Shown here: one piece after another, positions 5,896 through 7,918 of the stretch | Position numbering within the stretch: position 1 is the stretch's first letter | How the letters are laid out: each line of letters starts with the position of its first letter | Assembly: GCA_048885535.1 (NCBI GenBank) | Contig: JBHLLO010000076.1 | Location: forward strand, 1-14,232 | Source: Candidatus Hermodarchaeota archaeon | Lineage (GTDB): Archaea; Asgardarchaeota; Lokiarchaeia; Sigyniarchaeales; SOKP01 | Reading direction: 5' to 3' | DNA: 14,232 bases | Position numbers and translations under genes: made by a program | Notes under the pieces: model-generated | Database searches by the model: none | What the model was told of the DNA's origin: nothing | Seen by the model: the letters and a program-made list of their open reading frames with translations, nothing else

Positions 5896-7263
5896 ATGCC
5901 GACCAAAATTGTTGTCGTTGGAATGGGGTATGTTGGAATACCTATGGCTGCTATGTTAGCAGATGTTGATGATTTTTTTGTTACAGGAATTCAACGAAGA
6001 TCTATAAGATCAGGATGGAAGATAGATTGGCTTAACGATGGTAAGAATCCTTTTGAAGGTGAGGAACCTGGATTGGATGAACTAATCAGTAGAGTAATAA
6101 GAAATAAAAAATTCTACGTTACTGATAGCTATGAATCATGTAAAGATGCAGATTATATTTTGATTGATGTTCAAACTCCAGTTGAAATTGAAGACAAAAT
6201 ACCAAGATATGAATCCCTAGTAGAAGTTTCTGAAAAAATTTCTAAACATATGAAAAAAGGAGTAACTATTATTATCGAGTCTACAGTTGCTCCGGGGACT
6301 ACAAATAATATTGTTCAACCCATATTAGAAGAGGGAAGTGGACTAAAGAGAAGTGAGGATTTTTATCTTGTTTTTTCGTTTGAACGAGTTATGCCAGGGA
6401 AATTGTTAGAGTTTATTACTGATATCCCCCGTGTAATTGGAGGAGGATGCAATGAAGCAAACGAGAGAGCTAAATTTTTATATGGGAAAGTAGTAAAAAA
6501 GGAATTACAAATAACAGACACGCTTACGGCAGAATTAACAAAATGTATAGAAAATGCTTATAGAGACGTGAATATTGCTTTTGCAAATGAAATGGCATTA
6601 TTGTGTGAAGACTTTGGGAGAAATATATTTGAAATTATTACATTAATCAATCAAAGGGAAGACAGAATGATGCATCTTCCTGGATCTGGAGTTGGTGGTC
6701 ATTGTTTGACAAAAGATCCATGGTTACTCCTATATGGTTATGATCGATATACTCAAAAACAAAATAAGGAAAAAATAAAAATAATACCTGATTCCCGAAA
6801 TCTAAATGATTTTATGCCTAAACATATGGTGGAGTTAATGGAAGATGCTTTAAAAGAAGTAGGAAAATTAGTTGATAATATAAAGATTTGTCTTTTAGGA
6901 GTTTCTTATAAAGCAAACACAGATGATACTCGAAATACTCCCACTGAACATATCATAAAAATTTTAACAAGTAAATATCATTCACACAATATCATATATC
7001 TGGCTCAGGATCCCTATGTGAAGGCAAAAGATTACAACCTAACTGATTTTACTAATGATTTTAATGAAGCTGTGTCGAAAGCGGATGTGCTAATCTTTAC
7101 TACCAACCATAAACAATATTACAATATAGATTTAGATGATTTAAAGAAAAGAGTGAGAACCCCTATCATTATTGATGGGAGAAATATATTCAATAAAAAG
7201 ATGGTTGAGAGCAGAGGTTTTATATATAGAAAAGTAGGAGAAGGCGCTAAAAATCCATTTTAA
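5896..7263 (+). CDS. Nucleotide-sugar dehydrogenase (UDP-glucose/GDP-mannose dehydrogenase family, WecC/WbpA-like)
   Basis: GMGYVG Rossmann motif, IESTVAPGTT, ERVMPG, AELTK..EN.YRDVNIAFANE, PG.GVGGHC catalytic Cys, YKANTDDTRN, IIDGRN. Confidence 0.95.
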   Translation: MPTKIVVVGMGYVGIPMAAMLADVDDFFVTGIQRRSIRSGWKIDWLNDGKNPFEGEEPGLDELISRVIRNKKFYVTDSYESCKDADYILIDVQTPVEIEDKIPRYESLVEVSEKISKHMKKGVTIIIESTVAPGTTNNIVQPILEEGSGLKRSEDFYLVFSFERVMPGKLLEFITDIPRVIGGGCNEANERAKFLYGKVVKKELQITDTLTAELTKCIENAYRDVNIAFANEMALLCEDFGRNIFEIITLINQREDRMMHLPGSGVGGHCLTKDPWLLLYGYDRYTQKQNKEKIKIIPDSRNLNDFMPKHMVELMEDALKEVGKLVDNIKICLLGVSYKANTDDTRNTPTEHIIKILTSKYHSHNIIYLAQDPYVKAKDYNLTDFTNDFNEAVSKADVLIFTTNHKQYYNIDLDDLKKRVRTPIIIDGRNIFNKKMVESRGFIYRKVGEGAKNPF

Positions 7264-7294
7264 AACGATATTTCTTATTGAATTATAATCCTTT

Positions 7295-7328
7295 TTATCT
7301 CAAGCTTTCACATAGCTTATAAGACTAA
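7295..7328. other. Imperfect stem-loop between convergent genes (terminator or 3' UTR element)
   Basis: AAGCT (7302-7306) pairs with AGCTT (7314-7318) around a 7-nt loop; outer TTATCT and AGACTAA arms extend it with bulges. Confidence 0.4.
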
Positions 7329-7345
7329 ATCCTAATATTTTTGAT

Positions 7346-7498
7346 TTAATCCTTGAGATTTTTTTTGTTTATTTTTTTATGTTTTGTCTTTTTTTTTAAG
7401 TACCGGAAACATGCAATAACGCCATCAATAATTCCTCAACTAGTACAAAACTTATTATCAGATTCTGATTCATCAAGTCTATATTTCCATTCAGACAT
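7346..7498 (-). CDS. Unannotated 50-aa protein with in-frame TGA in a CxxU motif; candidate small selenoprotein (alternative: pseudogene)
   Basis: Manual translation MSEWKYRLDESESDNKFCTS[TGA]GIIDGVIACFRYLKKKTKHKKINKKNLKD-TAA; TGA at 7436-7438; TATA box about 29 nt upstream of the ATG; fills an otherwise empty 390-nt gap. Confidence 0.6.
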
Positions 7499-7520
7499 TA
7501 TTTAATCTATTCTTTTAATT

Positions 7521-7532
7521 TTTTATATAAAA
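7521..7532 (-). promoter_or_regulatory. TATA box positioned for a leaderless or short-leader transcript of the 7346-7498 ORF
   Basis: Minus strand TTTTATATAAAA, centred about 29 nt upstream of the ATG at 7498. The background is AT-rich and the motif is palindromic, so the strand is inferred. Confidence 0.5.
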
Positions 7533-7651
7533 TAAGAAATAGAAATTATTAAAGAATATTTCTTATATTTAATAATTTTAGGAATATACTAAAGTTTTGA
7601 AATCTTTTATAGAACATATTAAAAAGATAGCAAACATTTGGCGGTCTTGTC

Positions 7652-7918
7652 ATGGGTATAAAAAAAGAGCTTAATGAAATGAGAAGAAGTATAGAAAGAA
7701 TGGCTGTAGAATTACATGATACAAATAAAGCAATAAGAGAATCGTTAAAGTTAACTTCTGATACAATAAAGGACATGAGTGAAAATTTTTCAAAAACATT
7801 AGAAGAATCTCTTAAAATTATGCGAGATATGAAGATTCAGATGGACATTAAAGACACTATCTTTAAAACTCTTGGAATCGATGGATTATTAACAGACTTT
7901 TTGAAACGGAAGAAATAG
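7652..7918 (+). CDS. Hypothetical 88-aa coiled-coil/amphipathic helical protein
   Basis: No Pro, heptad-like hydrophobic periodicity, Met/Lys/Glu-rich, ends LGIDGLLTDFLKRKK. Confidence 0.8.
   Translation: MGIKKELNEMRRSIERMAVELHDTNKAIRESLKLTSDTIKDMSENFSKTLEESLKIMRDMKIQMDIKDTIFKTLGIDGLLTDFLKRKK

Follow-up and report, generated by a model that had tools for sequence, protein, structure and literature searches.

A short reading frame interrupted by a TGA codon raises the question of whether that codon ends translation or is read as selenocysteine (Sec). Such a frame lies on the minus strand of a stretch of 14,232 nucleotides (hereafter the window; contig JBHLLO010000076.1, here C76) from the Candidatus Hermodarchaeota archaeon assembly GCA_048885535.1, within the Lokiarchaeia. 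From 7498 to 7346 the sequence reads exactly as a first-pass annotation of this DNA had described it: an ATG (7498-7496), a Cys codon three codons ahead of the TGA in a CTS-TGA layout, the TGA itself (7438-7436), 29 further sense codons and a TAA (7348-7346). Reading through the TGA gives the 50-residue product MSEWKYRLDESESDNKFCTSUGIIDGVIACFRYLKKKTKHKKINKKNLKD. The open reading frame (ORF) track misses this gene, as that annotation also stated, because translation table 11 stops at TGA.

Comparison with relatives, which throughout rests on metagenome-assembled genomes, establishes the gene (here called family A), its conservation, the coding constraint acting on it, a structured RNA at its 3' end and the link between that RNA and the TGA; Sec insertion at the TGA is what we infer from these. 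Family A is very probably a real coding gene for a 50-residue micro-selenoprotein recoded by means of the 3' three-way-junction RNA. The ribosome would read the TGA at 7438-7436 as Sec, and the element at 7362-7294, which overlaps the stop codon, would direct the recoding.

Conservation of the frame and of its TGA

Within the host assembly (3.09 Mb in 112 contigs, 91.6% complete, 30.1% G+C), 586 ORFs in six frames have the shape M-(10-40 aa)-TGA-(25-60 aa)-TAA/TAG, six of them with a CxxU motif. By itself the family-A ORF is not beyond chance; it stands above chance because it is conserved in relatives. Of 36 genomes sampled from the same genus, 34 gave a match when searched in six frames with the read-through peptide, each match covering residues 1 to 42-50 with one TGA inside. 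All 34 extracted genus orthologues, the window included, have TGA at the aligned codon, and residues S2, E3, W4, K5, C18, U21 and D25 are invariant among them.

A profile of the genus orthologues was then searched in six frames across all 161 genomes of the class. Matches were obtained in 103 of the 134 other genomes of the host's GTDB family (f1), 102 of them with one TGA inside; one of the 103, in genome G077, is doubtful. Loci were read for 72 of the 102 TGA-bearing genomes (33 of the same genus and 39 of other genera), and all 39 orthologues from the nine other genera keep the TGA. The figure of 102/134 is a lower bound, as genome G065 scored as a non-match yet has a divergent member, found through the RNA model described below. 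Elsewhere in the class, 26 genomes belonging to six other families gave no credible profile match; the only match outside the GTDB family (L113, genome G059) was read, rejected as false and dropped from the second set of loci. A match at L053 (genome G053) was likewise read and rejected, and is left out of alignments A1 and A2. As far as searched, family A is limited to one GTDB family of Promethearchaeota (Lokiarchaeia). With the neighbouring UDP-glucose dehydrogenase as query, the closest relatives that carry a name are genomes of 'Promethearchaeota archaeon' (Lokiarchaeota), in agreement with the lineage assumed in the first-pass annotation. The homologues that the first-pass annotation had called for thus exist in more than 100 genomes, with TGA aligned in every credible one.

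Alignment A4 comprises 69 of the 73 orthologous sequences; L034 and L042 were dropped for having ATA where the start codon aligns, L046 and L075 as near-duplicates. Within it only Sec21 and Asp25 are invariant, and M1, S2, E3, K5, C18 and G20 are at least 90% conserved. The CxxU motif on which the annotation was built is present in the window and is not invariant in the family: four genus members have C-x4-U in its place, and in the subgroup L108-L112 the Cys is displaced to 7-8 residues before the Sec. Cys30, counted there as a feature of the protein's layout, is not conserved.

The TGA is also not unique to the host assembly. The full stretch is covered by contigs of runs X3 and X4, which are other samples from a single study, and positions 7423-7668 by a contig of run X5 from another study; these contigs, which are assembled rather than raw reads, show zero differences at 7436-7438. 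That the ORF arose by chance, is a pseudogene or owes its TGA to a sequencing error, a view to which the 586 frames of similar shape (six with CxxU) lend some colour, is hardly credible against a TGA invariant across 10 or more genera, purifying selection and the same codon in other assemblies.

The contigs of runs X3, X4 and X5 all carry a T>C change at window position 7441 (+ strand) that turns Ser20 (AGT) into Gly (GGT). The CTSU of the window is a minority strain variant; the family consensus is CTGU.

Coding constraint on both sides of the TGA

After the TGA the frame is open to a TAA or TAG in 73/73 examined orthologues, which are only 31-76% identical to the window peptide. Mean entropies at codon positions 1, 2 and 3 are 0.63, 0.50 and 1.12 before the TGA and 0.86, 0.67 and 1.31 after it. 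Pooled Nei-Gojobori ratios of nonsynonymous to synonymous substitution (dN/dS), which are rough because dS is saturated, are 0.20 upstream, 0.22 over the 21 codons after the TGA and 0.37 in the basic tail. Judged by these patterns of substitution, there is protein-level selection on both sides of the TGA: conservation continues past codon 21 and the downstream changes are mostly synonymous, as the first-pass annotation had expected of a selenoprotein.

These data bear directly on the view that the TGA terminates, leaving a 20-residue peptide followed by a conserved non-coding RNA with a regulatory, stability or terminator role. TGA is indeed an ordinary stop in this genome, ending 234 of 1610 open frames of at least 250 codons, and the 3' element has neither a canonical SECIS (selenocysteine insertion sequence) core nor a significant match to a canonical model. 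Termination is nonetheless very improbable, since the 13-21 codons between the TGA and the element show third-position-biased variation with a dN/dS of 0.22, the invariant Asp25 uses two codons, the Gly/Ile positions use four codons, and the frame stays open in every one of these divergent orthologues. Moreover, a paralogous family considered below swaps its TGA for TGT (Cys) and not for another stop.

Sec decoding in the host

The host organism clearly decodes Sec, judging from its gene content. Its genome has a tRNA-Sec (61 bits, above the Rfam cut-off), a SepSecS gene adjoining it (486 bits) and a SelD gene (186 bits, above cut-off) that itself carries an in-frame TGA. Three genes of the VhuD/FlpD type also carry in-frame TGA codons, each with downstream AUGA...GA SECIS hairpins. 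The machinery that the first-pass annotation proposed to look for is in place, with genes resembling PSTK and SelB scoring below their cut-offs (see below). All 135 genomes of GTDB family f1 were searched for SepSecS and 130 have it, so co-occurrence of the gene with the Sec trait is uninformative within this family.

A three-way-junction RNA at the end of the gene

The 3' RNA element overlaps the last 5 codons and the stop of the window's family-A gene. Its first helix, P1, pairs 7359-7355 with 7301-7297 and contains a UCUC/GAGA core; P2 pairs 7352-7343 with 7331-7322 around an apical loop at 7342-7332; P3 pairs 7317-7314 with 7306-7303. In the genus orthologues (34/34) the conserved block begins 68-96 nt after the TGA, and the stop codon either falls within the element or precedes it by up to 18 nt. 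Because the stop varies in position relative to the block, conservation of the block does not depend on translation of its first bases.

RNAalifold gives the consensus as a three-way junction with a P1 of 5 bp, a P2 of 9-10 bp capped by an 11-12-nt loop and a P3 of 5 bp with a 5-7-nt loop. Across the MAFFT alignment 96.6% of the cells of its 19 pairs are paired and 13 of the 19 pairs show compensatory changes; 0/500 shuffles reach the score, and sliding the partner strand lowers pairing to 27-55%. The window copy folds as a three-way junction on its own (-15.8 kcal/mol, z = -3.3). A covariance model of the element, R1, finds one strong copy in the genome, at 7362-7294 (79 bits, the next match having 22 bits), and 102 copies in the 73 fetched loci. 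When the 102 copies are aligned to R1, 96.5% of cells are paired and 15/19 pairs are compensatory, every pair of P2 and P3 covaries, and UCUC/GAGA is almost invariant. In five further genomes, 9/9 strong R1 matches lie beside genes of family A or of a second family, B. Copies start 67-98 nt after a family-A TGA and 76-89 nt after a family-B TGA. An Rfam scan of the window at E<=1 returned a chance microRNA match only and no SECIS family. The three-way-junction RNA most likely directs Sec recoding of the family-A TGA.

Comparison with canonical lokiSECIS elements

The lokiSECIS described by Mariotti et al. (2016, PMC4989117) consists of AUGA, a 9-bp stem, an 11-nt loop that starts with adenines and ends in G (usually AG), and then GA; the eSECIS-like type I elements of Asgard archaea reported in the text of Huang et al. 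(2024, PMC11227280) form the comparison class. For membership, a 5' AUGA (rarely GUGA), a 3' GA or AA, a stem of about 9 bp (7-15) and a loop of about 11 nt (8-20) were used as criteria. When six canonical SECIS elements of the host genome are aligned, G.AUGA, AAA, U, G and AC are invariant.

The likeness lies in the hairpin. The window's P2 has a 9-bp stem free of mismatches and the 11-nt loop AAAAAUAUUAG, identical to the loop of one VhuD-type SECIS in the same genome. Throughout the 102 copies the apical loop has invariant AAA, U and final G, spaced as in the six canonical elements; an A precedes the G in 97/102 and the loop is 11-12 nt long in 98/102, with all 9 stem pairs covarying. Like lokiSECIS, the new element sits at or just past the end of a selenoprotein ORF, has a 9-10-bp stem and an 11-12-nt loop that is A-rich at its start and ends in AG, and carries a second small hairpin within the closing helix (in the canonical elements, as judged by eye). 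Hairpin resemblance alone is only suggestive, because 12 sites over both strands of the genome fit a strict pattern of a 9-bp stem with an 11-nt loop that has four or more A in its first five positions and ends in AG; three of these sites have the canonical core and the candidate element is one of the nine that do not.

The differences lie in the core. In place of the AUGA/GA kink-turn core, P2 has at its base normal Watson-Crick pairs that covary, and the closing helix is the almost invariant UCUC/GAGA; in the window the stem is preceded by CAAG and followed by UU. A kink-turn elsewhere in the element, formed by J1/2 with the GAGA strand, was considered and dropped as the 5' junction is variable. 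Weak recurrent matches to R2, a model built from the six canonical elements (at L029, L031, L051, L026 and L024), fall inside the coding sequence of the divergent neighbour and were rejected. On balance, a second Lokiarchaeal SECIS class is moderately probable: a UCUC/GAGA three-way junction that keeps the canonical A-rich apical loop, does without a kink-turn core and would serve two micro-selenoprotein families specific to the lineage.

A second family and the exchange of Sec for Cys

Many relatives have a second short TGA-containing ORF, usually 340-390 nt downstream of family A on the same strand (for example L037:527-664 (+), L034:1135-1272 (-) and L105:828-962 (-)). This family, B, occurs in 65 of the 135 genomes of the GTDB family, and a search of the window's own genome gave no match. 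Its members are 44-59 aa long with a motif C-Y-x-T/S-S/T-U followed by W-Y, and M1, C15, Y16, U20, W26 and Y27 are invariant (alignment A3); no Pfam or NCBIfam match exceeds its cut-off. Families A and B share size, a charged N-terminus, a Cys...Sec arrangement, a hydrophobic helix and a charged tail, and B comes with a 3' RNA element of its own, equally far from the TGA. B differs in an acidic aromatic N-terminus instead of MSEWK, in C-x4-U, in the invariant W-Y and the lack of an invariant Asp, and in the existence of Cys-for-Sec forms. A profile-profile comparison with hhalign aligned the two families Sec on Sec (probability 69%, E 4e-5), and on this evidence they are probably old paralogues.

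Gene content and element content can be followed together across the 73 loci. Gene A alone is accompanied by one element at 35 loci. Where A is joined by a Sec-type B (28 loci) there are two elements, 73-98 nt after the A TGA and 78-89 nt after the B TGA. At five loci A and B lie 18-20 nt apart and a single element follows, 76-89 nt after the B TGA, an arrangement that resembles the shared SECIS of hdrA-vhuD. Four loci have a Cys-type B (TGT; L032, L094, L095 and L096) and no element after B, as confirmed with filters off. At L101 (G135:C84) B has been lost and a degraded second element (40.6 bits) lies about 210 nt after the family-A TGA. A fifth Cys-type B, in genome G148, is followed by a weaker element (L204:926-995) of 39.3 bits, compared with 49-64 elsewhere, in which UCUC has become UCUA. 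The degraded elements of L101 and G148 look like relics left after loss of the Sec codon.

The element is thus present in 33/33 examined Sec-type B genes, absent in 4/5 Cys-type B genes and weakened in the fifth, in counts that ignore kinship; at least two lineages are represented among the Cys types (genera g1 and g28). This pattern is the strongest evidence that the element is a Sec-insertion signal, an argument from comparison that reaches gene A through the element it shares with B.

The same pattern bears on the alternative that the TGA is read through as something other than Sec, by a near-cognate Cys or Trp tRNA or by local recoding outside the Sec machinery. Public gene callers do translate members of family A with W: of 13 relatives in a library of 1.84 billion proteins, twelve have W and one (P0012) has Leu at the Sec position. 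However, P0013 is the product of L083 except for W in place of U, so the W residues of the library reflect TGA called under another table and not Trp homologues. These proteins (P0002-P0014) carry 'hypothetical protein' names at best in the public collection, and P0018, a 381-aa member of one protein cluster, proved unrelated. A non-canonical element would also suit such read-through, yet its apical loop signature equals that of canonical SECIS, SepSecS is found nearly throughout the GTDB family, and neither TGG nor TGT stands at the TGA of family A among the matches listed, which is unexpected for a Trp or Cys product. In paralogue B it is Cys that replaces Sec, with the RNA there mostly lost. 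Read-through to another residue is accordingly most improbable, and the interpretation of the TGA as Sec21, put forward in the first-pass annotation, gains support from conservation, machinery and coding constraint alike.

Several observations weigh against this interpretation of family A and its element. The quartet that defines every described lokiSECIS and eukaryotic SECIS is present in 0/102 copies; model R2 matched no A or B element under default filters, and with filters off its best match in the window, the P2 hairpin (7351-7323), reaches 12.9 bits (E 0.22) through stem-loop positions only. The PSTK-like gene (166 bits) lies under its curated cut-off and the SelB-like gene (230 bits, on the same contig as SepSecS) just under its own. 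Some complete genomes of the genus, such as G012, have no match in the six-frame peptide and profile searches. No Cys homologue of family A was found among the profile matches listed or the 13 database proteins; the Sec/Cys pair is present only in paralogue B, where the Cys-type gene of G148 retains a copy of the element. Finally, because A and B are probably paralogous, the RNA that they share is not fully independent evidence.

Predicted structure and possible function

AlphaFold2, run on alignment A4, predicts a short helix at residues 4-8 and a long helix at 18-48, with no strands (mean predicted local distance difference test score 72, about 90 for residues 21-40; predicted template-modelling score 0.36). 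Cys18, Sec21 and Asp25 (i, i+3, i+7) are predicted on one face at the N-terminal end of the long helix. This agrees with the earlier opinion that the protein, at 50 residues, is too small for a thioredoxin fold. Neither the family-A peptide nor its divergent 88-aa neighbour has a Pfam or NCBIfam match above cut-off.

Redox CxxC and CxxU motifs usually sit at the N-terminal end of an alpha-helix. The predicted placement of Cys-x-x-Sec in family A is the same as in the thioredoxin-fold CxxU/CxxC selenoproteins (SelW/Rdx-type, DsbA-like, AhpF-N-like and Prx-like). Family A differs from them in its length of 45-60 residues, its predicted single helix with no beta-sheet, its lack of a Pfam or NCBIfam match and its unfixed Cys spacing, and on the predicted fold it is not a member of those families. 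For the function, motif geometry and the movable Cys lead us to favour, tentatively, a selenenylsulfide redox couple where the long helix begins, in the manner of CxxC/CxxU oxidoreductases, a suggestion somewhat less likely to be right than wrong. Against it stands its origin in motif geometry and a model of medium confidence, and the movable Cys, though it argues against a metal site of fixed geometry, is no proof of a redox role. Asp25 could serve as a catalytic or ligand residue. The Lys/Arg-rich tail may in part be a docking surface and in part a spacer that sets the distance from UGA to SECIS, the latter being suggested by the weaker constraint on the tail (dN/dS 0.37) together with the narrow range of UGA-to-element distances.

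Less likely still is that the product is a real selenopeptide and not a free-standing redox protein, acting instead as a small subunit or cofactor-binding piece of a larger complex, as a metal-binding peptide or as a precursor from which a modified peptide is made. If correctly predicted, a lone amphipathic helix some 30 residues long is unlikely to be stable by itself; the invariant Sec and Asp, which share a helix face with Cys, could be ligands; MSEWK at the N-terminus is strongly conserved, as if recognised by a partner; and families A and B are often in tandem. Opposed to this are the absence of any hydrogenase, maturase or radical-SAM gene as a conserved neighbour at the 73 loci, where genes for a sugar-nucleotide dehydrogenase and for a small helical protein hold the conserved flanking positions, each on the opposite strand; the lack of a family-B match in the window's genome; and a Cys-Sec spacing that varies (x2, x4, x6-7) and so suits a flexible redox pair more than a metal site of fixed geometry.

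VhuU, a 25-residue selenopeptide, is a subunit of the [NiFeSe] hydrogenase of Methanococcus voltae. Family A resembles it as a very small archaeal Sec polypeptide with its own gene, and differs in having no hydrogenase large-subunit C-terminal motif and no hydrogenase gene nearby. The host's hydrogenase-linked Sec codon is elsewhere, in a frame ending at a canonical SECIS on contig C57 that adjoins a large-subunit match.

The locus and other Sec frames of the genome

Features of the locus are collected in Table 1. The dehydrogenase gene holds the same convergent position at 60/73 loci and the 88-aa gene the same divergent position at 52/73; both lie outside the family-A transcription unit, and the context therefore gives no functional lead. 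ARAGORN found no tRNA within the window.

Table 1. Positions of the family-A gene, its codons of interest, the RNA element and adjoining features in the window.
Feature	Position	Strand	Basis
50-residue selenoprotein gene, family A (stop included)	7346..7498	-	sequence, conservation, coding periodicity, dN/dS
In-frame TGA, read as Sec21	7436..7438	-	invariant in 34/34 genus and 39/39 other-genera orthologues
Cys18 codon, putative resolving or ligand Cys	7445..7447	-	invariant in genus, at least 90% conserved family-wide
Asp25 codon	7424..7426	-	with Sec, sole invariant residues of the 69-sequence alignment A4; two codons used
Three-way-junction RNA, putative SECIS	7294..7362	-	covariation; 79 bits; minimum free energy -15.8 kcal/mol, z -3.3
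A/T-rich TATA-like box, putative promoter element	7523..7530	-	sequence; similar box in close relatives
Convergent neighbour, UDP-glucose/GDP-mannose dehydrogenase family gene	5896..7263	+	Pfam PF03721, PF00984, PF03720
Divergent neighbour, 88-aa helical protein, no Pfam/NCBIfam family	7652..7918	+	

The TATA box noted earlier is indeed found, as TTATATAA at 7530-7523, about 29 nt upstream of the family-A ATG. Most genus orthologues also have an A/T-rich block (ATATAA..A.TCTTTTAAGA-like) 45-70 nt before the ATG, at about 7543-7570 on the minus strand of the window. This block sits in the intergenic region common to the divergent 88-aa gene and is a possible promoter of either gene. The true family-A promoter may be either the TATA-like box or the conserved block about 45-70 nt upstream.

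Two other frames of the host genome were encountered alongside canonical lokiSECIS elements. An unannotated 67-aa ORF on contig C15:16265-16465 (+) (L193:2297-2497) has a predicted hydrophobic segment followed by GGGUPC, and the AUGA of a canonical lokiSECIS (L193:2497-2531; one stem mismatch) shares bases with its TGA stop. In 8/11 sampled genomes of the same genus the ORF is conserved, with a single internal TGA, and as a query it gave no match in 49 sampled genomes of 12 other genera. On contig C58, at about 18200-18800 (-) (locus L192), an ORF with two consecutive in-frame TGA codons (G-C-U-U) ends just before a canonical lokiSECIS at C58:18164-18192.

Relation to published surveys and significance

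As described in its text, the survey by Huang et al. searched 409 Asgard metagenome-assembled genomes with known selenoprotein families only and reported seven families (PMC11227280); a 2026 review lists the same seven-family set (PMC13188914) and credits isolate bin41 with the largest selenoproteome among archaea, and Mariotti et al. likewise worked from known families or from homologues with Cys (PMC4989117). No peptide of the family-A kind, about 50 residues long, was found in the published literature, whose supplementary tables (PMC11227280 S3-S5, PMC4989117) may list candidates. Within that literature family A belongs to none of the seven published Asgard selenoprotein families, yet it is present in more than 100 Lokiarchaeal genomes. 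Even the genomes studied best are under-annotated for short Sec genes, and if family A is what it appears to be, the Asgard selenoproteome would be larger than homology-based surveys report.

According to the text of Mariotti et al., no archaeal SECIS-binding protein is known (PMC4989117). A transition from archaeal to eukaryotic SECIS has been proposed in which the kink-turn core is central, and the new element keeps the hairpin and loop only. If the element works as proposed, it would be a natural dissection of the SECIS parts needed by the archaeal machinery, and the apical loop, rather than the AUGA/GA quartet shared with eukaryotes, would be sufficient for Asgard archaea to insert Sec. 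The family-A peptide is small enough for chemical synthesis, so that its redox or metal chemistry is directly accessible to testing.

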